A DNA stretch of 64,000 nt from Selaginella moellendorffii (taxonomy: Eukaryota > Plantae > Lycopodiophyta): the NCBI RefSeq assembly GCF_000143415.4, contig NW_003314343.1, positions 372,813-436,812 of the forward strand. The letters run 5' to 3'. The translations under genes and the position numbers were made by a program. Below are positions 14,467-53,300 of this stretch, in pieces; within the stretch, counting starts at the first letter, position 1, and every line of letters starts with the position of its first letter. Under the pieces are notes generated by a model. That model did not search any database and had not been told where the DNA came from. It saw only the letters and a list, made by a program, of their open reading frames with translations.

Positions 14467-14531
14467 TTTTTACGTTTTTGATTTAGCTCGTTTTGATTGT
14501 TTGATTACCTTTGCCTTTTTCCCCCTTGCCG

Positions 14532-15503: not shown

Positions 15504-15520
15504 GAGCTGTCTGTTTGGAC
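15476..15520 (+). promoter_or_regulatory. -1 programmed ribosomal frameshift signal
   Basis: G GGA AAC in the gag frame, 6-nt spacer, 11-bp perfect stem GTCCAAACAGA/TCTGTTTGGAC. Confidence 0.82.
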
Positions 15521-19213: not shown

Positions 19214-22200
19214 GGAGGGGGTGCTGTCAGGAATCCCCCAATTCTTGCCACATTCCTGATTCTTGCCGGATTCCTGACCTGCAGACCACATTCCTGACTC
19301 TCGAGACACTTCCCTATTCCTGACTCTCGAAACACTTCCCGATTCCTGAGTCTCGAGCCATATTCTTGATGATGATGTGGCGCCTCCTCGACCTCAGCTA
19401 TATTTAGGCCGTCCTCGATCCAAGAGTGGTGGAGCTTCATCAACCTATAGTATATATAGGTTAGCCTTGTTCCATTTCTCCACAATCTAAATCAACGCCA
19501 GTCTAAGGCCTCTTCTTTGTTTCCACTAGCTTTTTCTCTTTGTCTTTTTGCATTTTCTAGTCTTGATCTTGTCAGGGGTCTTGACAATAGTGTGGAGGAA
19601 CTAGGTTCCTAAACTGTGATCTGTAGTGCGCTTTAAGTATAAGTTCGTGCACTAGCGTGGGGAGTCATGCCAGGCATCCTAGGTGATGCCATCTATATAT
19701 GCATATACGGAGGTTGAGTTCGAGTCCCAACCCTCTAGTGCTTGGGTTTGAGTCCCAAATCACTAGGGTGTGGTGATGGTTTTGAATATGAGGACACTCA
19801 TTTTTCGGTGGTCATGGACTCTCAGTGAGGAGACTGGTTTGGGTCGTGATGCACGATTAGATTGCTTAGTGCGAAAGCTCGGCATATCTAACTTGAACGC
19901 TTTGGTGCAAGTGGCACCAAGGACGTGGTGAGTGAGATGGGGACACCTAATCTTAGTTGCTATGGACCCTTGGCTATAACGGTTGGCTTGAGTGCACCGC
20001 CACGTGTGGGGGATGCCCCTAGGGTCTATGGTCAACAACTTGAAGGTCTAGAAGACTAAGTACCTCTTAACAACTCTGTTAAGGTGCCAAGGTGAGATCA
20101 CTATAAATAAGGACAAGGTCCTTGGTTGGCTAAGGAATGGGTTTAAAGTGTTGATTTGAATTATTTATAATGGTGTGGCTTGGTCAAGATGACCAAGTGG
20201 GAAGAGCACCTAAGAGAAATAAGCTATATCCATGCGATGGCATAGTGAGTCTGAGGAAAATAGTCTTTATAAGAGACCTATAGGAAGGTCACTAAATTGA
20301 GCTATGAATAAAGCCATAGCAGAAAATGATAAAGAGACATACTAGGGGTAAACACCCTTTGGACTTGGCAAGCAAATTCTTTACTATAAAACCAAAAAAA
20401 TACCTCAAAAATGGAGGTAGCAATCCTATGTTGTTGGGTGCAACTATCAAAGGATAAAAACAAAAGACTAATGGCTAAGAAAAAAGCTATGGGAACCATG
20501 GGAAAGAATCCAAAAGGCAAAGTTAAGCCAAAAACACCAATGTGTTGGGGGCTAACAAATTGTGGGAAAGGTAAAGTGTTTCCAAGGATGGATTCCCAAT
20601 TGCTCCGATTTGGCGAAAGTAGAAGCTCCAAAGGAGAGAGCGGTAAGGTAGCCAAATGATAGGGCCATGGACAGCCCTAGCACAAATTATGATAATGGGA
20701 ACTTAATGCCCAAGAAGGCACGAAATAGAAGAGAGGATGATAATGCCCTCAAGTAGAGAACTTTCTAGGGTGGGGAAGTGGAGTTACACAATATATGTAA
20801 TGCAAGGTGTTGGAGACACCTAGGAAATTGACTTCAAGAAGTCAAAAGTAAAAGTTCCAAAGTGTAAAGGTTATATCGATGGAAACTAAGACTACTTGAG
20901 AAAGAGTTGTTAGATTGAGATAGAGATGGTGTCTCTAACAAGTTTAGCGAGAACTAAACCAATAAAAAGAGAGAACCACTACAAGAGGTCCAATCAATCT
21001 TTAAGTTGGAGAGACTATCCTCCTTAGAGGATGGGTAAGGCATGGTGAGCCTTCAATATCAAACTATTGACGAATATTGGCGAAGTGCTAAGAATGGAAA
21101 GGGTAATACATGTTGGTATTACTTTATAAAATAATTTATCGTTCGATGAGGATATCGAACTTTGTCTATGGGTAGTAGAGTTGTGAGACATAGAATCCCT
21201 AAGCCCCAAAGTGGAGCCGAAAGGGTGCCATGTGGTAGTGGCTAAAGCAAAAGCCAAAAGAACATAACACGTTTGGATTAAAAGGTCCGACTTGAAAGGT
21301 CGAGAGCGGGAGTGGAACTCCCAACGAAATGATCGAGGAACAAGCACAAAGCAAGCAATAAGTGAGTCTCTAGAAAAGGGACACAAGAGGACCCAAGATG
21401 GAGTCCGAGATGGACCGAGATGGAATCCGAGATGGACCCGAGATGGAGTCCGAGATGGACCCGAGATGGAGTCTGAGATAGAGTCTGAGATGGAGTTCGA
21501 GATGGACCCGAGATGGACCCGAGATGGAGTTCAAGATGGAGTCCGAGATGGGAGTCCGGGATGGAATCCAAGATGGAGTCCGAAAAGGACCCGAGATGGA
21601 GTCCAAAGTTGAGATCGAGACCAAGACTGGGACCGAGACCGGGACCAAGACCGGGACCGAGGCTGAGGCTGAGGCCGAGACCAAGCCTAAGCCTGAGTCC
21701 AAGTTTGAGTCCAACTCCAAGTCCGAGTTCGAGTCTAAAGGGGTGAAAGCCCAAAGCATTCATCTTCCAAACCCTGGGGGGTTTGGTGAGTTCCAAAAGT
21801 ATAGTAGGGGGAGGACTCCAATGGAGCCAATTTGGCCAGGAAAGGCCAGTTTGTCCTAGGAAGGCTGTACCTAGGTGTTGGGTGATAGGATAACCACTGG
21901 GAACTCCAAGGCTAGAGTGAATATGGACCAACAAACAGGGTAGTTTGGTAAAGTGTTCAAGAGTCGGCTCTAGTTCCCCCGGGAGATCGAATGGTCGATG
22001 CTCCTAGTCCAAGTGTGGGTGGCACTACCTACTTGGATACCTGGCGTGGCTCAATGAAACCTCGCTTTAATCCCATGGCTAGAGCACCCAAAGGTGGAAG
22101 GTGGGGAGAGTACCCATGAGGCTCGCGTAGGGCCACGGTGTTCCGAAATGTTGTCCCAAAGGCCCAAACTATGGAAAGGAAGAGAAGTAGTCCTTTGGTG

Positions 22201-25200
22201 TAGTGATCAAGGATACAGTCATGTGGTGAGGAAGCCCCAGAGGACTGTGGGACTTAGTGGTCAGGCCTATTGGCCTCAATCCAATGGCGGTGTTGGTAAA
22301 CATGGCCATGGGCAGAAAGGGACATGGTGAGGACCGGAAAAAAGATATTGGGGAAGGCTATTCCCCATGTCTGTGGGCATCCTAAAGATGCTAAGGAGTG
22401 GATCTGGGATGATCACTCTTGAACGGATAGCTCAGTCTTTGAGAGACGGGACTATGATGTAGGTGGTGTCAGACCACCGGTATGACCAAGGTGAATGGGC
22501 ATGGCCTTAGCGTAACGGGCTGATATGTCGGTGGTACTTTGGGGTGTCGGTCATAGGATCGGACACATGGAGCACTTGGACCAAATGCAATGGTTGAGTG
22601 ACATGGATGTCATTTTTGGGGTTAGCAAGTCCTTAAGTCCAAAATAGGAATTATGGAGGTTGTGAGTGAGACTCTTCCAAGTGGTTAAAGGTGTGGTTAA
22701 ATGACTAAAGTAGAATGGAAAATTTAGTCGCTTACACTAATATCATCCTCTCCTTTCAGAAAATGGAAAATAATTAAGACTTTTTGGTCGGGATTTGAAA
22801 AGTGATGTAAATTTTCAAATCCATCATTGTAATGCACCTTTATTTTATGTTGATTTACCATAGAATAACCATGAAACAAAACCTAAACCCTCCATATGCC
22901 ACATGCCATATGCTATGTGTCCAAAGGACAATGGAGTGGAACCTAAATTTCAAGGCTTAGGCCACTAAATAAAGAAATAGAGCAAACATGACACCAAGAA
23001 GCAAATGTACTAGAGCATGGAACAACTCTTAAGCGTATAGCCTAAGAACTGAAGGGATAAAAATATGGAGTGACTTGGAATAATCCTAGAGCATATTTTA
23101 ATGCCATGATCAGCATACAAAATAGAGTTATACAAATTTTAGTGCTATTTTAATATACTAGTGGCTTAATGTGAGGATATAAGTACTCTATTAGCTAGCA
23201 TGGTGTGAAACTTAGGTTTAGACCCAAGCCGAACATAGAATAAGGATAAGCATGCAAACAGGAGCTAGACTATGCATTAAGTTGGTTGATTATACCTGGC
23301 TTACCCACTATACCTACTATACATTTGGAACATATGCCCCTATCCCTCCTAAAGAACACATGGTTTAGGTTTTCACCCTTAGTACTAGGAGTTAGTCTTT
23401 AGGATTAATTTACTAAATATAGAATGGTGTTAGATTGCAAATTTAGACATGGGACCAACACTATTATGTTCAAAACAATCTCTACATTCTATATATATAT
23501 GCAAAATTAGCAAATCTAGACACTTTCCATAAATAGCAATTGGGACCAAACAGTACTAACACAAAGTGCATGATAATGAGGGTATTTGGCAAACACGATA
23601 AGTTATCATCTAATGAATATTGAAGGACTAATCTCAATATCACAAGGGTTCTTGTTAAACCAATACAGGACAAAGCAAAAAAGAATTAATAAGCCAGGCT
23701 AAATAAACACTTAGGAATTCCTTCCTTATGCTTGTTTAGCCAAATACAAATACTAACCCCAATTTACTAACATTTGAACAAGAGGGATTGATAAAGGGTT
23801 TAGCAATATTAACCTCCTAATGTCGTAACACTAAGGAAAGAATAGTTAAAAGGACTAGTCGATAAATAACTTTCGATACCCATAGTCACATTCATGACAA
23901 TTGCAAAAACCTTTAGATTCATGGTTTAATATTTTGAGCTTCATGAACCTCATCTATTTTGTGGACACCAAACATTAAATACATAATGAATATAGTATCA
24001 AATATAATATATATATATATATATAACATATAAGCTAGATCCTATTCATTCCTGTTCTCCACATCTCTGTAAGCCACAAATTTTTCCTTTCCAATTTGCC
24101 AGCTTACCTCGACTATCCGTCCAACATTGCCTTGGCTTTTGCTAAGTTCCCTGGCCAAGGTTCTCGCCTATGGTACCAGCTCCTACTTGGTCTCAGCTAC
24201 TCACTGCACAAGCAACGGAGTGTTAGCCATCCATCCACGGATTCCCAAATCACTCCCAATCCCCCTCCCCGGGTTAGACTGGACTTAAGGTTCGGCTATA
24301 CTCCCCGCAAGCACAAACAGCCAAGCACACCAAGCTTCCAGGTTCCTAACATCCTTTGGTACCACAAGACTTGATCATGGGACCCTTTAAATCCCAAGTC
24401 TTGAGTGCAACACTTGCTTCGGGATGCCGAGGCGAAACACCGTGGCCTAGCGGCCCGGTATGGGTACCTCTCGCCCCCCACTTCCATCCCGAAGGAAGGC
24501 CCAAGCCCCTAGGAAGGGCGAGGACCAATGAGCCGCATGGTACTCAAGTGGGGCACCACTCCACATGAGCCGGGAGCACCGCAATCGGTTTCCCTTTCGG
24601 GAGTGGGAGCTGCTCTTGAGCACTTCCTTGGATGGCCCCTCCGGCACCAGCCAAGTCCATGCTCACTCCCACCCAAGGCCCCTCGGTCCCAGTCTCAACC
24701 TCAAGTCGGTTTGGAAGCCCAATTGGAGAGTCCCTTCAAAACTGGTTTCTGGACCTCACTATCCCTACTATACTTTTGGAACCCCCTGCAGCCCCCCCCC
24801 CCCTGGGAGACGCACGCTTTGGGCTTTCACCCCTTGACCCGTATTAGTATTTGGACTTAGTCTCTGGCTCGATCTCGGACCCGATTTCGGATCCGACTTC
24901 GGATTCGGTTTCGGACTCGATCCCGGACTCGATCTCGGACCCGATCTCGGACCCGACCTCGGACTCGACCTCGGACTCGGTCTCAGACCCGATTTCGGAT
25001 CTCAGACTCCGTCTCGAACTCGGTCTCGAACTCGGACTCGAACTCGGTCCCCGAGTCGGTCTTGGACTCGATTCCGGACCCAATCTCGAACTCGGTCCTA
25101 GAGTCGGTCTTGGACTCGATCTTCGACTTGGTCCCATCCGATGAACTCTTTGTCATTTTGGTCATGCTTTTGGGGTTCCTTTAGCCTACGACACCTCGGC

Positions 25201-25289
25201 GAGTTGGTTCCTTACAACTCCACCACCCATAGAAGAAGTTCGATGCCCACATCGAACGTCTCTTTTTATCCTACGACTTGTTGACCATG

Positions 25290-25524
25290 TCTCCGGGGGC
25301 ATCCCCCCACTTAGCGGTGTGCCTAAGTTAGCCTCCCCGGCCAAGAGCCCATGACAACGGAATATAGGTGTCCCTATACTCCTCACCTCACCACGCCCTA
25401 GTATAGGGTCGGGACTTGAACCCAGCCTTGCTTTACTAGGGGGTTGGGACTTGAACCCAACCTCCGTAGAATACGTCTACGGATTCGACATCCCCGCAGG
25501 GAGTCGGGCGTAGCTCCCTACGCC
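25290..25524 (-). ncRNA. Conserved multi-hairpin RNA element in the 3' UTR of element C, with two T-loop/B-box hairpins and a GACA-tetraloop module
   Basis: Compensatory base changes against the homologous family-A segment (46930-47330). Confidence 0.65.
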
Positions 25525-25619
25525 TGGTCAACCTAGCTAACCCATGCTAATTAGCTTACCTTCGGCGCGCCTTCGGGTCCCAACATATGCCACTTGCTCA
25601 ACTTTGCAAATATATATTT

Positions 25620-28600
25620 TTATTTGAACTTTGCATAAGTACATAGAGTTCTGCCTTGCAGAAATTCCTCCACTAGATCTCGCGCGTTCGCTAGGTTCTC
25701 CTCCGGTTCCCATGTTGCTTCGCAGTGTGGAAATCCTTTCCACTTCACATGGAACTCTCGAACCTCGCGTCCTTGTCGCTTGCTCTTGCGCGCATTGAGG
25801 ATGGCCTCGACTTCGTATTCCTCTTCCCCTTGGATAACCTCAGGTAAAGGTCTTACTTGGTCCTTGCGAAGCGGATCCTCAAAGTACGGCTTGAGTAAGT
25901 TCACATGGAACACTGGGTGCATCTTCCCCATCTCTCGAGGAAGTTGGAGACGGTAAGCCACTTTACCGATTCGAGCCTCAATCTCGTAAAGCCCCGCGAA
26001 CCTGCTTAAGGAACTCAAGATCAATTCATTTACAGGAATACATGCATTTTTACCTTTGGGTCAACTTCCGGCTGATCCCACTTGGTAGCCTGAGGTTCTT
26101 GGTGTTCAGCCACACCTTCTCCTCAGCTTGGAACTCCACATCCCGACGCTTTTGGTTCGCGTACTTAGTTTGCCTTTGTTGAGCCCGTTCCAAGGAATCC
26201 CTCACTAGATTCCAAATGTTGAGTCTTTCCGCCGTGAATGCCTCCACTGCGGGTAACTCTCCATGATACTCGGCCACGCCGAGTTCCACAGGACCTTCAA
26301 CAGCTCGCCCATTGATGACTTCCCATGGACTCACCCCAATGCTCAAATGTGGTGAGTTGTTATAACACATTTCCGCAAGTCCCAAATGACTTACCCAGTC
26401 GGTCTGGTCTCCCGAGACATAGCATCGCAAATAATCCTCCAGCTGCCTATTCACCCTTTCCGTTTGTCCGTCTGTCAAGAAGTGTTAGTGCCATCAATCT
26501 TGACTCAATACCCATTACCTGTCTGTGGGTGATAGGCCGTGCTGAATTTCAACTTGGTGCGATACTGTTCTAGGAGTGTCCTCCAGAACCTACTGGTGAA
26601 GATCTTATCTCGATCTGAGATAATCTCTTCCGGCCTTCCCCGCACTCGAACCACTTGTTCGAAGAACAACTTCGCCACACCTTCCGCATCCACATCCGTT
26701 GTGGTGGGTATGAAATGGGCCATCTTTGAAAATCGGTCCACCACCACGAATATCGCATCGAACCCCTCGCTTGGGGGTAGTCCCGTGATGAAGTCCATCG
26801 TGAGACATTTCCACGGACGATCTGGAATGGGGATGCTTTGCAACAAGCCCCCACTAGCCTTCGTCACGGCTTTGACCTGTTGACATGTTGGACATGTCTT
26901 TACATAGTCTTGGACGTCCTTAGCCATATCTGGCCAGTGATACTTCCTTTTGAGTAAGCCCATCGTCTTGGGCACTCCGCCGTGTCCCGCGAGAGGTCCG
27001 TCATGACACTCTTCCAAGGCTACCTTCCTTAGTTCCCCTTCTGGAACATACACCCTCATTTGCTTGTAATATATGAGTCCGTTGCGTTCCGCATAGCCCG
27101 TTTTCTCTTCCGTTAGCAGCTCACCTCTCTGGTGAGCTTCCCGCGCCTCCAGATTCCTCAGCAACACTTCTTGTGCTAGAACATCACTCTCGTATGCGGT
27201 CCGCACATCGTCCCAAAAGGTTGATGTCGCGCTAGATATCGCCAACTTCAAGCTCGCTTTTCGACTTAGCGCATCTGCCACGATATTGCTCTTCCCAGGC
27301 TTGTACAGGATCTCGCAATCAAACTCGGCCAAAGCATTGGCCCACCGACCTTGTTTTCCCCTTAGGTCGGGCTGTGACAAGAAGTGTTTCGTTGCCACAT
27401 TGTCCGTGTAAACCTTGAAGTGTCTCCCAAGGTAGTGCCGCCACTCCTTGAGCGCCTTGACCACCGCAAACAATTCCTTCTCGTGGGCAGGCCACTTCCG
27501 TTGAGCCTTGTCCAGCTTCTTCGAGAAGAACGCTACTGAATGGTTATCTTGCTTCAAAACTGCGCCCAACGCAAAGTCCAAAGCATCCGTGTCTACCTCA
27601 AAGTCCTTACCAAAATCTGGTAATGCCAACACCGGAGCCTTCCTCAACTTCCCTTTGAGGTGGACGAATGCCGCCTCGCATTCTGCTGTCCATACCATCT
27701 TCCCTTTTCCTGTTTGGTCCGTTAAGGGTAGGGCTACTCTCGAATAGTGTCTGATAAACTTTCGATAGTAGTTGCATAGCCCCAAGAACGCCCTCAACTC
27801 ATGTACATTCGAAGGCCGCTCCCATTCCTGGATCGCTTGGACCTTCTCCGGGTCCACCTTGAGCCCATCCTGGCCCACCACATGCCCGAGAAACTTTACC
27901 TCTTGTTGAGCAAAGTCACATTTGCTCTCTTTAGCATACAGTTTGTGTTCCCTTAGTTTCTCAAACACCTTCGCCAAGTGTTCGGCATGCTCCTCTAGCG
28001 TCTCGCTATAGATCAGGATATCGTCGATATAGACGACCACGAAGTGATCCAGATAGGGTACAAAGATGTGGTTCATCAACGCCGAAAACGTTGCCGGCGC
28101 ATTGCACAGCCCAAAGGGCATCACCAGAAACTCAAAGCTCCCATACCTCGTTCGACAGATTGTCTTCTCGACATCTTCCTCAGCTACCCTGATCTGGTAG
28201 TATCCTGACCTTAGGTCAATCCTCGAGAAGTATTTTGCCTTTCCCAACCTATCGAACAGGTCCTCAATCCTTGGCAAAGGGTACTTGTTCTTCTTGGTAT
28301 ATTTGTTGAGCAACCGGTAGTCTATGCACATGCGCATAGATCCATCTTTCTTTTTCACAAATAGCACCGGCGCCCCATACGGCGACTTGCTCAACCTAAC
28401 ATACCCTTTGTCCACCAACTCCTCTAGTTGGCTCTTGAGCTCCTTGAGTTCTTTTTCGTTCAATCGATAAGGTGGACGAACCACCGCCTCAGCACCCTCG
28501 ACCAGCTCAATCTTATGTTCTATCGGTCGTGCGGGGGGCAACCCCGCCGGTAGCTCCTCCGGCATGGTATCCTGGAATTGGTCCAGCACCTACTGGATCA

Positions 28601-30392
28601 CTAAAGGTACTTCTTCCGTTCTTGTCTTTTTGTCACTCTTCACCGAGAGTAAGCACAAAAAGGCTGCCTTAGTTCCTTTAGTGAGTTGTCCTCTCGTGGA
28701 CACCAGGTTTAAGCATGACTCTTTGGCCTTGCTTTGCCCTACCTTTAGATCCTGGGCCTCCACCCTAGATCTTCTTCCTTGGGCATTCGCCAATACCACA
28801 AGGTTCCTACCTTGTCCATGTAGGGCTACCACGAACCGATTAAACCAATCCATTCCGAAGATCACGTCAAATCCCGCCATGTCCAAGACGGTGAAATCCA
28901 TGTCCACTTTCCATGTCCCCACTTCGACTCTCGCTTGTCGAAGTACCTCATCGGTGCTTTGGCTACCCTGAACAAACTCTATAGTCCTTGGTTCGCCTAG
29001 CCGCTGCACCGTTAGTCCGGCTTGCCGGACTATGTCTGCAGCCACAAAATTATCCGAAGCACCCGTGTCAATAAGGATCTTAACAAAGTTACCTCCGAGC
29101 TTCCCTCGGAGGGCTAGTAGATGTCGCGAACGACTCTCTACCAAAGTTGCTCGTGTAATGAGTAACTTTGAGTTAGGGACTGGATCACATACCTCAGTTT
29201 GGACTTCACCCGACTTGATGGCCATATTGGCTCTGGCCTTCTTCGGGTAGGGACATTCCCTCGAGAAGTGTCCCGCTTCGCCGCAGTTGTAGCATACGTT
29301 GTTGCCCACGCTGCTATACGACTTGACCTTCTTATCCGTGGGTTTGTCTCTTTTCGCTTGACTTCCCCACGTACTCGCTCGCTGGCCACCGGATTTGCCT
29401 TTCCGGAACCCCGAGGACTCATTCTTAGAGAAACTCTTCTTGAATTTCCCCTTGCTATATGCTCCCCTCGGTTTGGCCCCTTTGTGAAACGTGGATCCCG
29501 ACCCCGTCGTGTTCCCCTTTCGCAGGTTATCATTGAAATGCACCTTGATGGCCGCATCCAACGCTTCCTTGTAGTTGGTCGGGTTCCAGCGCATCACCTC
29601 ACTGCGAGCCCAGGTTTGCAAACCTGATATAAAGGCATGGAACGCATCCATATCCCCCATGTCCGTGACAAGTATCCTCTTTGCCATGAACCCATTCACA
29701 TATTCTTGGATGGTTCCAGTCTGCTTCAGCCTACTCAGCTCATCTCTCAGATGCAGAGTGGCATTCGAAGGAACGTATGTCGCATGGATCCTCGCCTTCA
29801 TCATGTCCCAGGTGGCCACCGGTCCTTCGTTGGCCTCCGTTGTTCTCCACCAAGACTTGGCATTATTTGCCAAGTATGGTTTTGCATATGGGACCTTCTC
29901 CGAGCTCGGTAACCGCAACGCTCGGAAGTAGTCCTCCATATCGTAAAACCAATCCTCCACAACCTTATAGTCGTTCACTCCCTTGAACACCGGTGGGGGC
30001 TTTGGTTTGTACTTGGGAATTGCCTAAGGGACTGATTCCACTTCGGTCTGTTCGACCTTGTCTGGTTTTGCCTCAGTCCCTGCCGAAGGGTCCGCACCTT
30101 CTGCGCTGCCAGCATCCGCAGTCTTTCGCTTTTCCTTCCGCTTCTCGTCACGCTTTAACTTGCGTACGAGAGTCTCTAGCAGGGCATTGGTCTGTGCCAA
30201 CTGTCCTTCTAGCACGTCCAATCGAGCCTTGGACGACCGAACCTCGCCACCGGACTCCTGTTTGGAAGTTTCCTCACTGGAGTCCTCCTCATGCAAGGAT
30301 TCCTCATCCATAGCCTCTTGTTCAACCGGAGGCTCCAGCTCCGGCGGAGGTTCCGTCTCCGCCTGGGTTCGCTTACGCCCTGCCCTTGCCAT
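25620..30392 (-). pseudogene. gag-pol: Element C single-frame gag-pol with two point stops (30024, 28590) and two introns in integrase (26518-26472, 26053-26002)
   Basis: [54 protein letters not shown]35-E restored by splicing, chromodomain YEVEAIL...KWKGF...WEPEENL. Confidence 0.92.
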
Positions 30393-32534
30393 CTCCCAGC
30401 AATCCGCCTCTATCCTTCGCTAGAACTGAGATAAAGGCTCCGATACCAAATTGTAAGCCACAAATTTTTCCTTTCCAATTTGCCAGCTTACCTCAACTAT
30501 CCGTCCAACACTACCTTGGCTTTTGCTAAGTTCCCTGGCCAAGGTTCTCGCCTATGGTACCAGCTCCTACTTGGTCTCAGCTACTCACTGCACAAGCAAC
30601 GGAGTGTTAGCCATCCATCCACGGATTCCCAAATCACTCCCAATCCCCCTCCCCGGGTTAGACTGGACTTAAGGTTCGGCTACACTCCCCGCAAGCACAA
30701 ACAGCCAAGCACACCAAGCTTCCAGGTTTCTAACATCCTTTGGTACCACAAGACTTGATCATGGGACCCTCTAAATCCCAAGTCTTGAGTGCAACACTTG
30801 CTTCGGGACGCCGAGGCGAAACACCGTGGCCTAGCGGCCCGGTATGGGTACCTCTCGCCCCCCACTTCCATCCCGAAGGAAGGCCCAAGCCCCTAGGAAG
30901 GGCGAGGACCAATGAGCCGCATGGTACTCAAGTGGGGCACCACTCCACATGAGCCGGGAGCACCGCAATCGGTTTCCCTTTCGGGAGTGGGAGCTGCTCT
31001 TGAGCACTTCCTTGGATGGCCCCTCCGGCACCAGCCAAGTCCATGCTCACTCCCACCCAAGGCCCCTCGGTCCCAGTCTCAACCTCAAGTCGGTTTGGAA
31101 GCCCAACTGGAGAGTCCCTTCAAAACTGGTTCCTAGACCTCACTATCCCTACTATACTTTTGGAACCCCCTGCAGCCCCCCCCCCCCCCCCCTGGGAGAC
31201 GCACGCTTTGGGCTTTCACCCCTTGACCCGTATTAGTATTTGGACTTAGTCTCTGGCTCGATCTCGGACCCGATTTCGGATCCGACTTCGGATTCGGTTT
31301 CGGACTCAATCCCGGACTCGATCTCGGACCCGATCTCGGACCCGACCTCGGACTCGACCTCGGACTTGGTCTCGGACCCGATTTCGGATCTCGGACTCCG
31401 TCTCGAACTCGGTCTCGAACTCGGACTCGAACTCGGTCCCTGAGTCGGTCTTGGACTCGATTCCGGACCCAATCTCGAACTCGGTCTTAGAGTCGGTCTT
31501 GGACTCGATCTTCGACTTGGTCCCATCCGATGAACTCTTTGTCATTTTGGTCATGCTTTCGGGGTTCCTTTAGCCTACGACACCTCGGCGAGTTGGTTCC
31601 TTACAATCTCCCACATAGAATATAGATTATAAACATTCAAATGTTTATAAATAATATGAAATGAATTCTAGCAATTGATTATACTCAAATTTAGTCTTCA
31701 TCATAGAAAGATAAAATTAAACATCCTTAACTTATAACATCTTTGATCAAATATTATTTGTACATTGTTATACTATCAAGAATCCTAATTTTAATAAAAG
31801 TTTAAAAGATATACTAAGAAAAGTTTAGGGTTATTTCTACAAGTTATTTCTACAAGATTAAAGTTTCTAGAAATGTTTTTTAAATCTCTAAAATTAGTTT
31901 CACTCTTATAAATTTGTAAAGTAGCCTAATAATAATAAGTAATGAGATGAATATGTAGAAGGACAGTGTTATTTTAAAATGTCTTTAGAGAGGATTATAT
32001 GTCTGCCATCGTCAATTTCTTATTTGAGATTTTTGCTTTCTTCTTTCAATCCTTCAAGCTAGAAGTAGAAAAAAAGCAAGCTCCCCTTCTTCTTATAGAT
32101 GGCATTGTTCTAGAATTCCTTCTTGGCCACTAAGCTAAGAATAAGAGGGAGAGGATGATTCACCACATTTTTTTAGAAGTAGGAGCTAAACCAAGTTTCC
32201 CTTCAGCTTCCAGGACATTGAACTCGTCGGTAAGCTCCTTGCCAGGCACTGGCCTGCCTGCGCTTGGAAGAGGTCCATGGATCTACACTAGAATTATTGT
32301 GTGGAGTTAGCATCTTGGCCTGTTGCGAATCTTGCAAGGTAATGGAAGAATCAATCTATTGTTTTTTATGAAAACCGAGGCTCTTGTGCAAGGGCTTTAT
32401 CTCACTCTCAGGATCGATCTCGGATTGAAGCTCTGGAGCGATCCACCATGATGCAAAGTGGGATGATACGCTGTTGGGAGCCCCGGCAGCGTATGGCGGT
32501 GAGTTTACATTTCTTAGGTTGCATGCATGCATGA

Positions 32535-34998: not shown

Positions 34999-35416
34999 TG
35001 CTTTCTCTTCTCTGGAGCGAGCAAGCTCCTTTTATGGGCAACGTCCGGCCGATCCATCTGTGGAGTAACGTAAGAGGCCTGTTCTCGAGGGGTGGTGGCA
35101 AGAAGCAACTTAAGCTGGAAGCCGTTTTGGTTTATGCTTAACATCCGAGATTGACACAATCACAAGGTGGAAGATTCTACTTCCTTGTACAAGCCTCAAA
35201 AATCCAGGACACCAGGAAAAGATGGAAGTTTCATCTATGATATCTCTCATCAGGTACGTGTCAATATGATCTTCCACATTCTAACACTCCAACTGTGCTT
35301 TTTTGTAGCTATGTGTGATCGGGCGGAAGCGATTCATCACAAGGAAAAGGTAAGCTTGCTGTTGGTTCTTTGTTACTCTAACTTGTGCTTGCTTTGTTTC
35401 CAGAGCTCTTCAATCG

Positions 35417-41996: not shown

Positions 41997-42879
41997 TGTG
42001 AGACATAAAATCCTTAGGCCCCAAAAGGGGAGCCGGAAGGGTGCCATGTGGTAGTGGCCGAAGCGAAAGCCAAATGAGCATAACACGTTTGGACTAAAAG
42101 TTTTGACTTGAAAGGTCGAGAGTGGGAGTGGAACTCCCAATAAAGGGCTCGAGAAACAAGCATGAAGCGAGCAATGAGTAAGTCCCTAGAAAAGGGACAC
42201 AAGAGGACCAAAACATAACATGTGGAAGTGTCCGAAATAGACCCGAGATGGAGTCCGAGATGAACCCGAGATGAACCTGAGATGGAGTCCGAGATGGACC
42301 TGAGATGGAATCCAAGATGGACCCGAGATGGAGTCCGAGATGGACCCAAGATAAAGTCCAAGATGGACCCAAGATGGACCCGAGATGGAGTCTGAGATGG
42401 AGTTCGAGATGGACCCGAGATGGAGTCTGAGATGCAGTCCGAGATGGAGTCCGAGATGAACCCAAGATGGAGTCTGAGATGGAACCGGGACCGAGACCGA
42501 GACCGAGACCGAGTCCGAATTCGAGACCGTGACCGAGACCGAGCTCAAATCCAAGTTCGAGTTCGAGTCCGAGTTTGAATACTAATGGAAGCAGTTAGGT
42601 GAAAGCCCAAAGCAATCGTCCCCAAGGGGGAGGGGGGGGGAGGGGGTGTGAGACACAAAATCCCTAGGCCCCAAAGTGGAGCCGGAAGGGCGCCACATGG
42701 TAGTGGCCGAAGCGAGAGCCAAACGAGCGTAACACGTTTGGACCAAAAGCTCCGACTTGAAAAGTCAAGAGCGGGAGTGGAACTCCCAACGAAGTGCTCG
42801 AGGAACGAGCACGAAGCGAGCAAAAGGCGAGGCTCTAAAAAAGGGACCCAAAAGGACAAACACATGACACGTGGGAGTG

Positions 42880-43440
42880 TCCGAGATGGACTCGAGTTGG
42901 AGTCCGAAGTGGAGTCCGAGATGGACCCGAGTTGGAGTCCGAAGTGGAGTCCGAGATGGACCCGAGTTGGAGTCCGAAGTGGAGTCCGAGATGGACCCGA
43001 GATGGAGTCCGAGATGGAGTCCGAGATGGAGTCCGAGATGGAGTCCAAGGTGGACCCGAGATAGACCCGAAATGGAGTCCGAGATGGAGTCCGAGATGGA
43101 CCCGAGATGGAACCCGAGATGGAGTCCGAGATGGACCCGAGATGGACCCGAGATGGAGTCCGAGGTGGACCCGAGATGGACCCGAAATGGAGTCCGAGAT
43201 GGAGTCCGAGATGGACCCGAGATGGACCCGAGATGGACCCGAGATGGAGTCCGAGATGGAGTCCGAGATGGAGTCCGAGATGGAGTCCGAAGTCGAGACC
43301 GAGACCGGGACCGAGACTGAGACCGAGACCGAGATCGGGACCGAGACCGAGACCGAGGCCGAGGCCGAGACCGAGCCCGAGCCCGAGTCCGAGTCCGAAT
43401 CCGAGTCCGAGTCCGAGTCCGAGTCCGAGTCCGAGTCCGG
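42880..43440 (+). repeat. LTR minisatellite of 11/12-mers (GGACCCGAGAT / GGAGTCCGAGAT) followed by 6-mers (GAGTCC/GAGACC)
   Basis: Directly visible; repeated in all full A LTRs and in related form in C LTRs. Confidence 0.95.
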
Positions 43441-46400
43441 AGCCTGAGAGGGTGAAAGCCCAAAGCATTCGTCTCCCAGACCCTGGGGGGTTTGGTGAGC
43501 TCCAAAAGTATAGTAGGGGGAGGACTGCAGTGGAGCCAGTTTGGCCAGGAAAGGCCAGTTTGGCCCAGGAAGGCCGGACCCAGTGTTGGGTGATGAGCTG
43601 CCCACTGGGAAGTCCAAGACTAGAGTGAACACAGACCGACAAGCGGGGTAGCTTGGTGAAGTGTTCAAGAGCCGGCTCTAGTTCCCCCGGGAGATCGACT
43701 GGCCGATGCTCCCAGTCCAAGTGTGGGTGGCACTACCTACTTGGATACCTGTCGTGGCTCAATGGAACCTCGCTCTAAGCCCATGGCTAGAGCACCTAAA
43801 GGCGGAAGGCGAGGAGAGTACCCAGGTGGCTTGCGTAAGGCCACGGTGTTTCGAAATGTTGTCCCAAAGGCCCAGACTGTGGAAAGGAAGAGGAGCAGTC
43901 CTCTGGGGTAGTGACCAAGGACACAGTCGTGTGGTGAGGAAGTCCCAGAGGACCGTGGGACTTAGTGGTCGGGCCTGTGGGTCTCGATCCAGTGGCAGTG
44001 TTGGCAAACACGGCCAGGGGCAGAAAGGGACTTAGTGGGAACTGACAGAGGGATATTGGGGAAGGCTATTCCCCTTGTCGGTGGGCATCCTAAGGATGCT
44101 AAGGAGTGGATCTGAGATGACCACTCACGGATGGTTTGCCTAGTCTTGGAGAGCCAAGACAGTGATGCAAATGGTATTGGACTACCAGTGTGGCAAAGGT
44201 GATTGGGCATGGCCTTAGCGTAACGGGCTGCTATGTCGGTGGTACCTTTGAGTGTCGGTCATGGGATCGGACACGTGGTGCACTTGGACCCAGTGCAAAT
44301 GTTAAGTGGCATGGATGCCATTCTCGGGGCTAGCAAGTCCCAAGTCCTGGATTGGACTTATGGAGGTTGTGAATGAGACTCCTCCAAGTGGTCAGAGGTG
44401 TGGTTAAGTGACTAAAGTAAGAATGGAAAATTTAGTCTCTTACATTTTGGTATCGGAGCTGTTCCTTAGTCCGACTTTTATTGGTGCTCAAGTATATCAC
44501 CACTAGTGTTGGCATCGGAAGGTCCGAGGAGTGGGCCTATCCTTGAGGAGTAGCAAGTCGGGAAGACATGGCTCTCCATTACAGTTCATGGGTGAACTTG
44601 TAGACGAGGTGGTGGATAGAAAAGGGCCAATAATGGAACGACTTTGGGATCTTGGGAACAGTGCAAGGTTTTCCTCATTGAGTTGAGGAGGTGATCCAGA
44701 TGAGCGTTTGACTCAGCAAACGGGCTAATGTAGTTGGGGTAAACAACTATAGTTGGGATCACGGGGAAGATAGAGACTCCAAAAACAATAAAGGAGTCAC
44801 AAGTTTATCCTCACATGGTTGAGGCTGGTGCTCATGAAGGTGAGACCGGAATGGATGACCGTGAGAGGTCAAGTATGGATGAGGACACGAGTCCTCGAAA
44901 TGGTAGCCGAGGCTACCTCTAATAAATGCTGGAACAACCCAAGGAGTTGGGGGTGTATTAAGTGGATGAGTTGGTATTCTCATCACATGGACAAGTAGTC
45001 CCAAGGGGCAAAGGTTGCCCCTGGAGAACAAAATCAAGTGTCGGAGTAACACTTGTGAAAATAGTCCTTTTGAGTAGGACAGGAATGCAAGAAGTGTATT
45101 CCAGTGAGCTAGGGCCTCACAAGTAGGACCTTACGGGTCTGTGGATTAACCAAGTCCAAAACTGCTGGATGACTCAAGTAGAGTCAACGGATGGTCCTAG
45201 AAGGACTGATGGAAGCATTTGGACTGAGGTGTGTTGTACCCCACAAAGGATGGGGGGGGATCATAGGATCCAAGGATGAGAACAGAGGGTATCTCATCGA
45301 TGGCAAAATGTGCCATGCTAAAGTTATGGGAAAGGTGTTCCCAGAAGAAAACAACTTTGACATAAAGTTGTGTGTGACCTCTATGGTGCAGTGCTAACGG
45401 ATGGTTGGCATGAGAAAGAGCGGTGTTCGTCTTGGCAAAGACTTAGACACGAAGGGGAAATGTCATAGAGGTAGGCTCGTGGAGCCGATGGTGTGGAGAC
45501 ACCAAATGTGCCAAGGTGTGATACCTTGAGGCTATGTTGGTGGGTTCATGAGAACCCCTTGCCAAAGGAATCCCAATGGAAATGGGAATAGCATAGCCTA
45601 AGCTGCAGAGCATGCAGTTGGAGTGTGGTGACCCAGATAATGATGGAGGTGTGAAAGCACCAAACAATGAGTTGTAGGACTTGACAACTATGGGGCAACT
45701 AAGCAAGAGATGCAAAATAACTGGTTAAACGGGTAGAAGGTAGTTACCCAAGACTTCTTAATAGCATAGGGAAGTTGGATATACCCTTACGGGGGATAAG
45801 TTGCTTGTGTTGCGATATAGTAAGTCAATGTCATAGAAGGAAATACTCATTGTCAAGAAAGCCATCATTGGGACACCCGAACACTCTAGAACACCAGAAG
45901 GTGGTGTTTGATGTCGCGAGGGCAATGGATAAAGCCCAAGGGACTAAGTCCCTAGCGAATGATGGATAGAAGGTGCTATCCAAATGTCCAAGGTTGCGGA
46001 GACAGGAGAGGACTGTCTACCCGAGTTGGACAAAGCCAAAAATGGAATTTTGGCAAGGCTAGTGATGGGCATGTAAAGGCCCATAAGCAACAATGTAATC
46101 CCAGTGTGTGGGATTATAAGGTGAGCATACCCGGATTGAGGAACCACTCCCTAGGCTATTGGGTAGGTTCATCCCTAAGAATACTTGCTAAAGCATGGTA
46201 GAAAGTGCAAAGCTATCCTCCTGATCTGGAGGAGAATGACCGAAGGAAAGGTGTGAAGCCAAAGGCAAGTAGTATTGGGATGGAACTGAACCATAGAAAT
46301 CGAAGGGCATAACCAAGGTTGGTTATGCCAGCTGGGAGTGGAGAATCAAGTGGGGGCTCGAGGGTGTTGCCGCTAGCAACCGTGATGCCATGGAGAGTCT

Positions 46401-46929
46401 AAGTTATGGAATTGTCCATGTTAGACTATGTGGCATTTGGAAGGCTTGCAAAAGGGAGGCCTTAGCAAGCTGAGGGACAGAGTTCCTTCAAGGTTCCCAA
46501 AGACGATTCTAGGTAGCTTAGTACCTAGAAAGGCCAAGTGTAAATGGTTCATGGAACGCGCGAAATCAGAGTGGCGCAGCAAAAGCGTGGTCTTGAAGCT
46601 TGCCATGAGGCAAGGCTATCAAGGTTAGGGAAGTAGTTCCCGAGTGTTCAAAGAGAGGGCTTTGAACGAAAGTCGATGGTCAAGGACTTTCACGCTTATG
46701 CAGGAACCATGTTACAGTGGTCGGAGAACTTGCCAAGCGAGATTGGCACGTCGGGGGAACAAATACCCTAGTTGAAGGTGATAACTTCAAAAAGGGTGGG
46801 CCATGGGGCCGAGCATGGAGGAGTCCATGCATGATCACAGATATGTCAAGTGAGGGGACTTGGCAGTGTGGGGGAACTAGGTTCCTAAGCTGTGATCTGT
46901 AGCGCGCTTTAAAAATAAGTTGGTGCACC

Positions 46930-47330
46930 GGCGTGGGGAGTCACGCCAGGCATCTTGTGTGATGCCGTCCGTAGATGCATATACGGAGGTTGGGTTCGAG
47001 TCCCGACCCTCTAGTGCTTGGGTTCGAGTCCCAAATCACTAGGGCGTGGTGATGGTTTGGAATATGAGGACACTCATATTTCGGTGGTCATGGACTCTCA
47101 GTGGGGAGACTGGTTTGGGCACACCGCCAAGCGAGGGATGCCTCGGAGTCGTGATGCACGGTTAGATTGCTTAGTGTGAAAGCTCGGCATATCTAACTTG
47201 AACGCTTTGGTGCGAGTGGCACCAAGGACGTGGTGAGTGAGATGGGGACACCTAATCTCAGTTGCTATGGACCCTTAGCTGGAAGGGCTGGCTTGGGCGC
47301 ACCGCCAAGTGTGGGGGATGCCCCCGGGGT
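46930..47330 (+). ncRNA. Family-A copy of the conserved structured RNA element (also at about 19650-20040)
   Basis: GGGTTCGAGTCCC at 46992-47004 and 47020-47032; two GACA-loop modules. Confidence 0.65.
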
Positions 47331-50300
47331 CGTAGTTAACAAATTAAAGGTCTGGAAGACCTAGTACCTATTGGCAAACCTGTTAAGGTGCCGAGGTGAG
47401 ATCACTAGGTGATCTTGTGGCTAAATAAGGACAAGGTCCTTGTTTGGGTTAAGGAATAAGGTTCCTAGTTCAAAGTGTTGATTTGAACTATTGATGATGG
47501 TGTGGCTTGGTCAAGGTGACCAAGTGGGAAAAGCACCCTAGGGAAACGAGCTATGTCATTGCGATGGCATAGTGTGTCCAAGGAAAGTAGTCTCTAAAGA
47601 GACCCATGGGAGGGTCACAAAGTTGGGCCGTGGATAGAGCCCACAGCAGAAGATGCTAAAGAGACTTACTAGGGGCGAACACCCTAGTCTTGGCAAAGCA
47701 GAGCCTTTGCTAAGGAATCACAAGAATACCTCAAGGAGGGAGGTAGAGATTCGATGTTGCTTGGTGCAACAATCAATGGATAGGAGCAAAAGATGAGTGG
47801 CCAAGATAGGGCCGTGGAATCCCTTGGAAGGAATCCAAGTGACAAAGTTAGGCGAGGAACACTAATGTGTTGGACGCTAACAAGTTGCGAGAAAGGAAGT
47901 GTGTTTCCAAGGAGGGATTCCGAAATGCTCCGATTTGGCGAAAGTGGAAGCTCCAAGGGAGGGAGCAGTAAGGTAGCCAAATGATAGGGCCATGAACAGC
48001 CCTAGCACAAAGTATGATAACTGGAACTTTGGCACGAAATAGAAGAGAGGATGATGGTGCCCTCGAGTAGAGAACTTCCTAGGATGGGAAGTGGAGTTGC
48101 ACAAAAAGGTGCAAGGCAAGGTGTCGGAGACACCTAGGAAATTGACTCCAAGAAGTCAAAATTCAAAGTTCCAAAGTGCAAAGGTTATATCGATGGAAAT
48201 CGAGACTACTCGAGAAAGAGTAGTGGGATTGACTTAGAGAAGGGCCTCTAAGAGGTTTAGCGAGGACTAAACAAATAAAAGGAGAGAACCACTACATGTG
48301 GTCCAACCAATCTCTAAGTTGGAGAGACTACCCTCCTTAGAGGATAGGCAAGGCATGATGAGCCTTTGGTGTCAAACCATAGAGGCCTATGCAAAAGGCA
48401 TGGTGAGCCTTCAATGTTAAACCATTGACGAATATGGAGAAGGCATGGTGAGCCTTCAATGTCAAACCATTGACAAATATTGGCTAGGTGCCAAGGATGG
48501 AAATGGTAACACACGCGAGTGTTACTTTACAAAATGGTTTACCGTTCGATGAGGACATCGAACTTCGTCTATGGGTGGTGGAGTTGTGAGACACAAAATC
48601 CCTAGGCCCCAAAGTGGAGCCGGAAGGGCGCCACATGGTAGTGGCCGAAGCGAGAGCCAAACGAGCGTAACACGTTTGGACCAAAAGCTCCGACTTGAAA
48701 AGTCAAGAGCGGGAGTGGAACTCCCAACGAAGTGCTCGAGGAACGAGCACGAAGCGAGCAAAAGGCGAGGCTCTAAAAAAGGGACCCAAAAGGACAAACA
48801 CATGACACGTGGGAGTGTCCGAGATGGACTCGAGTTGGAGTCCGAAGTGGAGTCCGAGATGGACCCGAGTTGGAGTCCGAAGTGGAGTCCGAGATGGACC
48901 CGAGTTGGAGTCCGAAGTGGAGTCCGAGATGGACCCGAGATGGAGTCCGAGATGGAGTCCGAGATGGAGTCCGAGATGGAGTCCAAGGTGGACCCGAGAT
49001 GGACCCGAAATGGAGTCCGAGATGGAGTCCGAGATGGACCCGAGATGGAACCCGAGATGGAGTCCGAGATGGACCCGAGATGGAGTCCGAGGTGGACCCG
49101 AGATGGACCCGAAATGGAGTCCGAGATGGAGTCCGAGATGGACCCGAGATGGACCCGAGATGGACCCGAGATGGAGTCCGAGATGGAGTCCGAGATGGAG
49201 TCCGAGATGGAGTCCGAAGTCGAGACCGAGACCGGGACCGAGACTGAGACCGAGACCGAGATCGGGACCGAGACCGAGACCGAGGCCGAGGCCGAGACCG
49301 AGCCCGAGCCCGAGTCCGAGTCCGAATCCGAGTCCGAGTCCGAGTCCGAGTCCGAGTCCGAGTCCGGAGCCTGAGAGGGTGAAAGCCCAAAGCGTTCGTC
49401 TCCCAGACCCTGGGGGGTTTGGTGAGCTCCAAAAGTATAGTAGGGGGAGGACTGCAGTGGAGCCAGTTTGGCCAGGAAAGGCCAGTTTGGCCCAGGAAGG
49501 CCGGACCCAGTGTTGGGTGATGAGCTGCCCACTGGGAAGTCCAAGACTAGAGTGAACACAGACCGACAAGCGGGGTAGCTTGGTGAAGTGTTCAAGAGCC
49601 GGCTCTAGTTCCCCCGGGAGATCGACTGGCCGATGCTCCCAGTCCAAGTGTGGGTGGCACTACCTACTTGGATACCTGTCGTGGCTCAATGGAACCTCGC
49701 TCTAAGCCCATGGCTAGAGCACCTAAAGGCGGAAGGCGAGGAGAGTACCCAGGTGGCTTGCGTAAGGCCACGGTGTTTCGAAATGTTGTCCCAAAGGCCC
49801 AGACTGTGGAAAGGAAGAGGAGCAGTCCTCTGGGGTAGTGACCAAGGACACAGTCGTGTGGTGAGGAAGTCCCAGAGGACCGTGGGACTTAGTGGTCGGG
49901 CCTGTGGGTCTCGATCCAGTGGCAGTGTTGGCAAACACGGCCAGGGGCAGAAAGGGACTTAGTGGGAACTGACAGAGGGATATTGGGGAAGGCTATTCCC
50001 CTTGTCGGTGGGCATCCTAAGGATGCTAAGGAGTGGATCTGAGATGACCACTCACGGATGGTTTGCCTAGTCTTGGAGAGCCAAGACAGTGATGCAAATG
50101 GTATTGGACTACCAGTGTGGCAAAGGTGATTGGGCATGGCCTTAGCGTAACGGGCTGCTATGTCGGTGGTACCTTTGAGTGTCGGTCATGGGATCGGACA
50201 CGTGGTGCACTTGGACCCAGTGCAAATGTTAAGTGGCATGGATGCCATTCTCGGGGCTAGCAAGTCCCAAGTCCTGGATTGGACTTATGGAGGTTGTGAA

Positions 50301-53300
50301 TGAGACTCCTCCAAGTGGTCAGAGGTGTGGTTAAGTGACTAAAGTAAGAATGGAAAATTTAGTCTCTTACAGGGGGCTGTGGGGGGTTCCAAAAGTATAG
50401 TAGGGAGAGTGTGGGGGTTGAAGCCTAGTGGAGCTAGTTTGGCTAGGAAAGGCCAGTTTGGCCCAGGAAGGCCATACCCAGTGTTGGGTGATGAGTTGAC
50501 TACTAGAAAGTCCAAGACTAGAATGAATACGGACCGACAAATGGGGTAGCTTGGTGAAATGTTCAAGAGCCGGCTCTAATTCCCCCGGGAGATCGAATGG
50601 TCAATGCTCCTAGTCTAAGTGTGGGTGGCACTACCTACTTGGACATCTGTCATGACTCAACGGAACCTCGCTCTAAGCTCATGGCTAGAGCACCCAAAGC
50701 TGGAAGGCAGGGAGAGTACCCATGAGGCTCGTGTAGGCCATGGTATTCCCAAATGTTGTCCCAAAGGCCCAGACTGTGGAAATGAAGAGGAGTAGTCTTC
50801 TGGTGTAGTGACCAAGGATACAGTTGGGTGGTGAGGAAGTCTCAAAGGACTGTGGGACTTAATGGTCGGGCCTGTGGGCCTCAATTCAGTGGCAGTGTTA
50901 GCGAACACGGCCATGAGTAAAAAGGGACTTAGTGGGGACCGGAAAAAGGATATTGGGGAAGGTTATTCCCCATGTTTGTGAGAATCCTAAGGATGCTAAG
51001 GAGTGGATTAGGGATGAGCACTCATGGACAGATGGCCCAATCTTTGAGAGACGGAACTGTGATGTAGGTGGTGTTAGACCATCGGTGTGACCAAGGTGAA
51101 TGGGCATGGCCTTAGCATAATAGGCTGATATGTCAGAGGTACCTTGGGGTGTCAGTCATAGGATCAGACATGTGAAGCACTTAGACCAAGTGTAATGGTT
51201 AAGTGGTATGGATGTCATTTTTGGGGCTAGCAAATCCCTATGTCTAAAATGGGACTTACAGAGGTTGTGAGTGAAACTTCTCCAAGTGGTTGGAGTTATG
51301 GTTAAGTGACTAAAGTAAAATGGAAAATTTAGGTGCTTATAACTTGGTATTAGAGTTGTTCCTTAGTCCAACTTTTATTGGTGCTCAAGTATATCACTGC
51401 TGGTGTTAGCATTGGAAGGTCCTAGGGGTGGGCCTATCCTTGAGGAGTAGCAGGTCAGGAAGACATGACTCTCCACTACAGTTCATGTGTGAACTTGTAG
51501 GTGGGGTGGTGGATAGAAAAGGGTCAATAATGGAACGACTTTGGGATATTGGCAACAGTATAAGGTTTCCTCAGAGAGCTGAGGATGTGATCCAGATGAG
51601 CATTTGACACAATAAACGGGCTAATGTAGTTGTGGTAAACAACTATAGTTGGGATCACGGGAAAGATGCAGACTCCAAAACAATAAAGGAGTCACAAGAT
51701 TACCCTCATATAGTTGAGGCTGGTGCTTATAAATTTGAGATCGGAATTGATGACCGTGGGAGGTCAAATACCACATAAGTCCTTGAAATGGTAGCCGGGG
51801 CTACCTCTAATAAATGTTAGAACAACCCAAGGAGTTGAGGGTGTACTCAGAGGATGAGTTGGTATTCTCATCATATGGACAAGTGGTCCTGAGGGGCAAA
51901 AGGTTGCCCCAAGAGAACAAATTAAGTGTCAAAGTAACACTTGCAAAGATAATCCTTGTGAGTAGGATCTGAATACAAGAAGTTGTATTTTAGTGAGCTG
52001 ACACTTCAAAGGTAGGACCTTACGGGTTGTCGAATGACAAAGTCCAAAAAGCTGGATGACTCAAATAGAGTCAAAAAATAATCCTAAAGGAGTGATGGAA
52101 GCATTTGGACTGAGGTGTGTTGTACCCCATAAAGGATGGTGGGGATCATAGGATCCCAGTATGAGAATAGAGGGTATCTCATCAATGGCAGAATGTGCCA
52201 TACTAAAGTCGTGAGAAAAGTGTTCCCCAAAAAGAAAGCAACTTTGACATAAAGTTGTGTGTGAACATTATGGTGCAGTGCTAACTGATAGTTGGCATGA
52301 GAAGCGACTGCTTTGGTCTTGGCAAAGACCCCAACACAAATGGGGAGTGTCGTAAAGGTAAACTTGTAGAGCCGAGGGTGTGGAGACATCAAATCTGCCA
52401 AGGCATGTTGCCTTGAGGTCAAGTTGGTGGGTTTATGAGAACCCGTTCCCAGAGGAATCCTAATGGAAATGGGAATGGCATTGCCTAAGCTAGAAGGCAT
52501 GCAGTTAGAATGTGGTGACCCAGATAATGATGGAGGTGTGAAAGCACTAAACAATGAGTTGTAGGACTTGACAACTATAGGGCAACTAAGCAAAAGGTGC
52601 AAGATAATTGGTTAAACGAGTAGAAGGTAACTACCTAAGACTTCTTAATGGCATAAAGAAGTTAAATATACCCTTACAGGGTTTAAATTGCTTATGTTGC
52701 AATATAATGAGTCAGTGTCATAAAAGGAAATGCTTATTGTCAAGGAGGGCATCATTGAGACACCCAAACACTCTAGAACACCAGGAGGTGGTGTTTAGTG
52801 TCGTGAGGGCAATAAATAAGGCATAAGGGACTAAGTCCTTAACAAATGATGGATAGAAGGTGTTATCCAAACGTCCAAGGTTGCGGAGACAAGAGAAGAC
52901 TGTCTACTCGAATTGGACAAAGCCAAAATGGAATTGTGGCAAGGCTAGCGATAGGCATATAAAAGCCCATAAGTAGCAACATTAATCCCGATGTATGGGA
53001 TTATAAGTTGAGCATACCCGGATTGAGGAATCACTCCCTATGCTATCGGGTAGGTTCATCCTTAAGAATACTTGCTACGGCATAATAGAAAGTGCAAAGA
53101 AATCCTCCTAGTTTGGAGGAAAATAACTGAAGGAAAAGTGTGAGGCCAAAAACAAGTAGTAAAGGGATAGAACCAAACCATAAGAATTGAATTGCATAAC
53201 TAATGGTGGTTATGCCAATTGGGAGTGGAGAATCAAGTGCTCAAGCATGTTGTTGCTAACGATCGGGATGCCATAGAGAGTATAAAACATGGGAAATTCC

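Follow-up and report, generated by a model that had tools for sequence, protein, structure and literature searches.

A predicted twin T-arm RNA module shared by a Selaginella moellendorffii chromovirus and a non-coding LTR family

The 3′ untranslated region of element C, a chromovirus in the 64,000-nucleotide stretch of Selaginella moellendorffii DNA analysed here (the window), contains a genuine structured RNA module, as yet uncatalogued, that belongs to a known kind, namely an LTR retrotransposon cis-acting signal kept by its parasite, here the non-coding family A, with its function predicted from sequence. The unusual feature of this module, which is known from one species, is a pair of tRNA T-arm mimics. 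When the readings of packaging, export, and reverse-transcription start are taken jointly, the module very probably acts on full-length RNA during replication. Our best single explanation, held tentatively, is that of a conserved folded-RNA signal, of predicted structure, that may tag full-length RNA for Gag/nucleocapsid capture, packaging, and reverse transcription. A selected cis-acting RNA had been proposed in a preliminary description of this DNA, and the module being the only shared interior segment, its compensatory changes, and the pair-keeping variants of family A all support this proposal.

Table 1. Positions in the window of element C, family A, the module, and neighbouring features.
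Feature	Position	Strand	Remarks
Element C	24068..31605	minus	Ty3/gypsy chromovirus; target duplication GAGAT
LTRs of C	30452-31605 and 24068-25216	minus	98% identical
ORF1 of C	26505..30392	minus	gag, CCHC knuckle, PR, RT, RNase H, first part of integrase
Predicted intron 1, integrase	26472..26518	minus	47 nt; GT..AG; CACTAAC branch-like motif
Predicted intron 2, integrase	26002..26053	minus	52 nt; GT..AG; directly before exon with GPY/F-like motif and chromodomain
Chromodomain exon of C	26001-25620	minus	
AATAAA	25619..25624	minus	overlaps chromodomain stop codon; 95 nt upstream of module
Module in C	25524-25280	minus	~245 nt; 3′ untranslated region
Domain 1 in C	25396..25524	minus	five hairpins, H1-H5
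H1	25524-25507	minus	domain 1; GGAG loop
H2	25505-25487	minus	domain 1
H3	25483-25463	minus	domain 1; 46968-46987 in A3
H4	25462-25442	minus	domain 1; T-arm mimic
H5	25441-25396	minus	domain 1; long stem, cap is second T-arm mimic
Domain 2 in C	25280..25395	minus	GUGGUGA linker, H6, four-way junction
H6	25382-25359	minus	domain 2; GACA loop
Four-way junction in C		minus	domain 2; purine loop, GCACACCG loop, GAUG loop
Pre-PPT hairpin region and polypurine tract	25217..25258	minus	common to A3 (48543-48584)
PBS, tRNA-Met type	30437..30448	minus	identical in A3 (44448-44459)
16-nt LTR block	30817..30832	minus	exact in A3 (43838-43853)
B-box-like LTR motifs of C	31432, 31420, 31408 and 25043, 25031, 25019	minus	
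Element A3	42647..50371	plus	non-coding LTR element, about 7.7 kb; target duplication GGGGG
Interior of A3	44445-48572	plus	
Complete module in A3	46930..47165	plus	domain 1 46930-47045, domain 2 47046-47165
Extra domain 2 copy in A3	47225..47342	plus	blastn against C, E 5e-16
Decayed module in older copy A1	19654..20041	plus	domain 1 19654-19769
A1 domain 2	19767-19859	plus	32-nt deletion
A1 second domain 2	19919-20041	plus	
Element A4	41997-55975	plus	
Element B	14088-19586	plus	
Host aspartyl protease (TAXi/A1) gene	33463-35031	minus	
Tandem repeat family	61350-64000 and 56660-58930		~419 bp, with inverted copies

Element C matches SM1-Galahad, a Galadriel-clade chromovirus of S. moellendorffii (PMC3350952), by its described features rather than by alignment. 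Like C, SM1-Galahad is described as a 7.5 kb element of this host species with LTRs of >1 kb, a poly-G tract, a tRNA-Met PBS, a CCHC motif, and an ORF of 1295 aa, exactly the length seen in C, followed by short downstream frames, the last of which holds the chromodomain (PMC3350952); in C the chromodomain likewise lies in a separate downstream frame. ORF1 of C comprises 3888 nt with its stop, ends within predicted intron 1, and carries two internal stops in this copy. The ORF of the published family consensus ends where the intron-1 stop falls, and the split integrase was taken as separate ORFs, with the words “intron” and “untranslated” giving 0 matches in the main text (PMC3350952). The two predicted integrase introns would explain the split and the extra short ORFs reported for SM1-Galahad. 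The conserved motifs of the integrase peptides flanking both introns continue in frame. A 36-nt GT..AG stretch running up to the first base of the module (25559-25524) was set aside as a third intron, being short and unsupported. Section 2.1 of the SM1-Galahad paper describes neither a 3′ RNA structure nor a non-coding partner (PMC3350952).

Depth across both predicted introns equals that of their flanks, suggesting that the family retains them, and no splice joint matching them is found among the 15 of 30 joints listed; together with a consensus ORF that ends at the intron-1 stop, this indicates that any copying of spliced RNA is too infrequent to be visible. How the predicted introns survive reverse transcription is a puzzle in its own right. 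RNA is nearly absent: in runs of 9.2 million records each, the C stretch collects 9 and 3 reads and the A module 1, 0, and 0, and among those few reads there is no splice joint or 3′ end. None of the runs listed as containing the sequence is registered as RNA. Two contigs labelled as RNA, a label that is a guess for that run, enter the predicted introns unspliced. The AATAAA hexamer beside the chromodomain is a candidate early poly(A) signal, being the only AATAAA or ATTAAA in the 5.2-kb sense interior of C. It lies among the most AT-rich 40-nt windows, and its overlap with the TAA stop makes it less surprising (chance about 4%); a common family variant at 25623 turns it into the other hexamer, ATTAAA.

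Family A has the make-up of a LARD, with a length of >4 kb, LTRs, a PBS, a PPT, and no coding relic, the last as judged against the frames of C only (tblastn of A3). Comparison of the A3 interior (4.1 kb) with that of C by blastn at word size 7 returned, at E < 0.3, only the module (73% identity, 25524-25298 against 46930-47142, E 2e-26), its duplicated downstream half in A3, the pre-PPT segment (E 1e-5), and the PBS (14 nt, E 0.22), with the other 21 matches at E 0.77 or worse. The preliminary description had confined the resemblance between C and A3 to the five hairpins; the shared hairpin domain holds, however the homology continues past 25395 into a downstream half that had been missed and that family A carries twice. 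Loops and linker are conserved as well as stems. The module ends ~65 nt from the 3′ LTR in C and ~1.2 kb from it in A3 (approximate LTR starts), and its distance from the PPT is therefore not fixed.

All 8 strong model matches in the window lie within C, A1, or A3, and the module is present in two of the three A copies that have an interior there. It is intact in the youngest copy (A3, LTRs 99% identical) and decayed in the older A1 (91%), where domain 1 folds with a z-score of only -1.0. A4, whose LTRs are 87% identical and whose target duplications nearly match, lacks ~950 nt including the entire module, which counts against the module being necessary; given the low identity of its LTRs, it is possible that A4 lost the module after its insertion. 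A4 is split by A3, which is inserted into the poly-G tract of A4’s LTR. A second chromodomain Ty3/gypsy element, element B, with 362-bp LTRs that are 97% identical, sits inside A1 ~70 nt upstream of the A1 module; a domain-model search of the window found no module in element B.

The five consecutive hairpins of the preliminary description were found where it had placed them in both C and A3, and the two copies of domain 1, folded separately, give the same five helices. The predicted folds have energies of -66.7 kcal/mol for C 25395-25524 (z -6.25) and -57.8 kcal/mol for A3 46930-47045 (z -5.58), with 0 of 200 shuffles equal in either case, although taken alone these scores say little, as most 120-nt windows of the A3 interior have z < -2 on at least one strand and the antisense strand of domain 1 folds equally well. 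Folding of domain 2 favours the sense strand. The A3 interior as a whole shows a purine skew and an unusual abundance of hairpins. A 4-nt palindrome in the H3 loop, reading ACGU in C and UGCA in family A, is a weak candidate for dimer initiation.

Both T-arm mimics consist of a G-UUCRANN-C loop of 7 nt on a stem, and the window contains five such hairpins with stems of 3 bp or more, four of which are module loops. The T-arm 13-mer GGGTTCRAGTCCC has four exact occurrences and two with a single mismatch, where 0.26 would be expected in 64 kb, and all six lie inside C, A3, or A1. Position 57 of the T-loops varies between A and G, as in tRNA loops, and kissing through the T-loops was rejected, the UCGA palindrome being lost where this position is A. 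ARAGORN reports 0 tRNAs in the window, and with neither a cloverleaf nor an Rfam match the module differs from a tRNA gene or a viral tRNA-like structure. An analogy with the paired T-loops of RNase P and T-box RNAs, also put forward in the preliminary description, finds no support in the sequence, since each 7-nt loop closes a hairpin of its own, in the manner of a tRNA T-arm. The double T-loop of RNase P and T-box RNAs is built differently from tRNA-type hairpin loops, being formed by two interdigitated T-loop motifs that stack on the tRNA elbow.

Between C and A3, 77 pairs comprise 52 that are the same, 10 double changes, 12 single changes that keep the pair, and 3 that are broken, with a simulated P of about 2e-4 or lower, a value that is too small, as are the others for these pair counts, since helices and bulges were registered by hand. 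Domain 1 contributes 3 double changes in 40 of these pairs (simulated P 0.015-0.025) and domain 2 contributes 7 in 37, whilst the two A3 copies of domain 2, compared over 36 hand-registered pairs, show 10 double changes and 0 broken pairs. When the MAFFT alignments are left unedited, the value seen for domain 1 (3 related sequences) is reached by 35 of 500 shuffles, and those seen for domain 2 (4 related sequences) by 0-3 of 500 on four of five measures and by 129 of 500 on the fifth. The covariation originally claimed for domain 1 is thus weak there but clear in the downstream half. Wobble pairs on the sense strand are 18 G-U to 1 A-C.

Variation within family A was drawn from 12,115 contigs of one DNA run placed on the A module, taking all 31 variants at 8% or more. 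Eleven of the 12 that fall in stems keep the pair (binomial P 0.009), and the remaining 19 of 31 are unpaired (P 0.04). Four of the 11 lie close to the 8% threshold and could reflect neutral decay: three are C-to-T changes at CpG sites within G-C pairs, and the fourth falls in a C-G pair. A common variant (31%) breaks a pair of H6, and a pair of variants at 8-9% alters the linker. Each of the 12 deletion joints in the A module among those listed occurs in one contig, an observation given no weight here.

The comparison with Rfam suggested in the preliminary description gave no match to any family, neither across the window at gathering scores nor across either module at E values up to 10, and listings and passages of openly accessible papers yielded no description of the module. 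A dispersed tRNA-derived SINE, named in the preliminary description as a finding that would overturn it, is ruled out by a mean depth over the C module (1.02 M) equal to that over coding bins (1.01 M), summed depth from one run being a rough measure, and by a zero share of contigs continuing from the module into unlike sequence. Further afield, an exact 25-nt pattern gave 0 matches in viral contigs and 0 in metagenome contigs. The twin-T-arm pattern matched 16 viral contigs, 15 of them in loci with tRNA genes; in 12 of the 16 (L001-L016, about 1501-1556) the first arm lies in an ARAGORN tRNA and an orphan T-arm follows immediately downstream, perhaps left over from the replacement of a tRNA gene, and two pairs of loci look identical. 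A piece of the integrase gave 5 pattern matches and 0 relatives in viral contigs. Distant chromoviruses were represented by 81 loci at 36-48% identity (the best 80 of 560 confirmed, from 7 of 64 parts scanned, and 1 viral locus), none of them placed in the Galadriel clade and 12 with <250 nt downstream; in the 62 kb downstream of these loci T-loop hairpins number 3 sense and 4 antisense, never twin, with 0 matches to model R1 and one chance-level match to R2 (E 2.5).

The module is taken as the piece needed in cis because the non-coding partner keeps only this segment beyond the priming sites, retention in cis by a non-autonomous partner being what is looked for in a packaging signal. In the proposed mechanism, C would produce a spliced mRNA encoding the complete integrase, whose 3′ end would lie at the AATAAA next to the chromodomain stop. 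Module, PPT, and 3′ repeat would therefore all be missing from it, leaving the module to be carried by read-through, unspliced RNA only. Gag or a host tRNA-binding factor would then take hold of this RNA by its exposed purine-rich loops (GGAG, GACA, GGGGA, GAUG) and by the two T-arm mimics; GGAG is reportedly the loop of the HIV-1 SL3 packaging hairpin. The bound factor would deliver the RNA to the particle, by analogy with the T-arm mimic that brome mosaic virus RNA3 needs in cis for its replication-enhancer function (PMC13191261). That mimic is likewise an internal T-psi-C arm without the rest of the tRNA in a plant RNA replicon, however it is a single arm in a plus-strand RNA virus, with modification and function demonstrated, compared with two arms predicted from sequence within ten helices of an LTR retrotransposon (PMC13191261). 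Family A, coding for nothing, would keep the tag, double one half of it, and compete for the particles of C.

Packaging is favoured by the CCHC knuckle in Gag, the sharing of the module, its compensatory changes, and its intact state in the youngest A copy. In Ty3, packaging depends on the UTRs or POL, whereas the packaging sequences of Ty1 lie at its 5′ end, with the 3′ UTR dispensable for retrosome localisation (PMC4974528), and the Ty1 arrangement counts, by analogy, against a packaging role here. Coupling of splicing to early termination has been described for EVD (PMC5580714). The complete scheme, in which both integrase introns are spliced, the mRNA ends before the 3′ tag, and the twin T-arm mimics recruit Gag or a host tRNA-handling factor, we regard as unlikely.

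The 3′ position and the possible pseudoknot fit an export element equally well, and we consider it somewhat unlikely that the module is a splicing-independent nuclear export element for intron-retaining full-length RNA, similar to the MTE of MusD or the RTE of IAP. The genome RNA of C must keep its two predicted introns, a 6-bp pseudoknot between linker and loop is predicted to be possible in all four domain-2 copies, and the MTE, which adjoins the 3′ LTR, is a multi-stem RNA of ~400 nt that forms kissing and pseudoknot contacts (PMC4588558). The pseudoknot is however invariant and so lacks covariation support, and family A, which has no known retained intron or coding role, has nevertheless doubled domain 2. 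MTE and RTE resemble the module as large multi-stem RNAs near the 3′ LTR with a possible pseudoknot, but they belong to mouse elements, act via NXF1/NXT1, and are described in the cited passages with no mention of a T-arm mimic (PMC4588558, PMC12786077). The TAP/NXF1 receptor, through which yeast and mammals export RNA and to which MTE is assigned, is not used in plants, where LTR RNA export is described as having had no direct study so far (PMC12786077). An aid to the start of reverse transcription, whether by capture of the primer tRNA or by pairing with the 5′ end to circularise the genome, would recall the 3′ PBS segments of Ty3 or CYC5/CYC3 of Ty1 and appears improbable. Ty3 binds tRNAiMet via segments of its 3′ UTR (PMC4974528), the linker exposes UGGU, complementary to the ACCA end of a tRNA, and the 16-nt LTR block contains a 6-nt complement of the GCACACCG loop of domain 2, a candidate long-range pairing with a chance of 2% for one block and 7% for three. 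This pairing lacks covariation, however, and other leader sites match the loop as well or better, whilst the T-arm copies have the same sense as tRNA, with A or G at position 57, which points to mimicry of shape rather than base-pairing.

That the module instead acts as DNA, with two B-boxes binding TFIIIC as an insulator or Pol III promoter, or as a captured tRNA/SINE fragment as in Helenus, is very improbable. Both loops match the B-box consensus, and Helenus TRIMs with tRNA-derived promoters occur in S. moellendorffii (PMC10886601). The Pol III option of the preliminary description nevertheless fails on each element of a type-2 promoter or of Helenus TRIMp3: the best upstream A-box candidate deviates at 1 position in C and at 2 in A3, no better than background (389 of 639 random 100-nt windows hold one with at most 1 mismatch), no TTTT terminator follows within 670 nt in C or from 47033 to the end of A3 at 50371, and the module is internal, outside the LTR. 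Nor would such a role need compensatory changes in nine other helices, and the flat depth across module and coding region speaks against this reading as well. Helenus, present in this species as Helenus-1_SMo, and Cassandra TRIMp3 also carry tRNA-like sequence in an LTR retroelement, but as described these are short TRIMs whose A and B boxes lie in the LTR and are conserved for promoter function rather than for structure (PMC10886601), unlike the module, which lacks an A-box, is structurally conserved, and is present in an autonomous element as well. The 12-bp LTR satellite of C contains three tandem B-box-like GTTCGA..C motifs per LTR, with single motifs of this type in the A-type LTRs. Finally, we find it barely credible that the module is a functionless relic, its stems maintained by palindrome repair or template switching during reverse transcription. 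The hairpin-rich A interior, the equal folding of the domain 1 antisense strand, and the absence of the module from A4 would suit such a relic, whereas its standing as the only interior segment kept between two otherwise unalignable families, the conservation of loops and linker and not of stems alone, and the strand bias of the wobble pairs argue against it.

If the complete scheme set out above is correct, a plant LARD would possess a defined and transferable signal for its trans-mobilisation, and tRNA-arm mimicry would occur within the genome RNA of an LTR element. LARDs have been described as non-coding elements of >4 kb with LTRs, PBS, PPT, target duplication, and similarity to an autonomous partner, all of which apply to family A, with the molecular basis of such long non-autonomous partnerships said to remain unclear (bioRxiv 10.64898/2026.03.01.708851); here, in contrast to the LARDs described there, a single discrete module can be identified as shared. 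With the candidate signal confined to 245 bases of predicted structure, for which compensatory variants already exist, a small reporter would suffice to test helper borrowing or export of plant LTR RNA. Elsewhere in the window, the part of the host aspartyl protease gene that was searched shows 99% identity to SELMODRAFT_136051, and copies of a tandem repeat family occur in both orientations in two blocks towards the end of the stretch.
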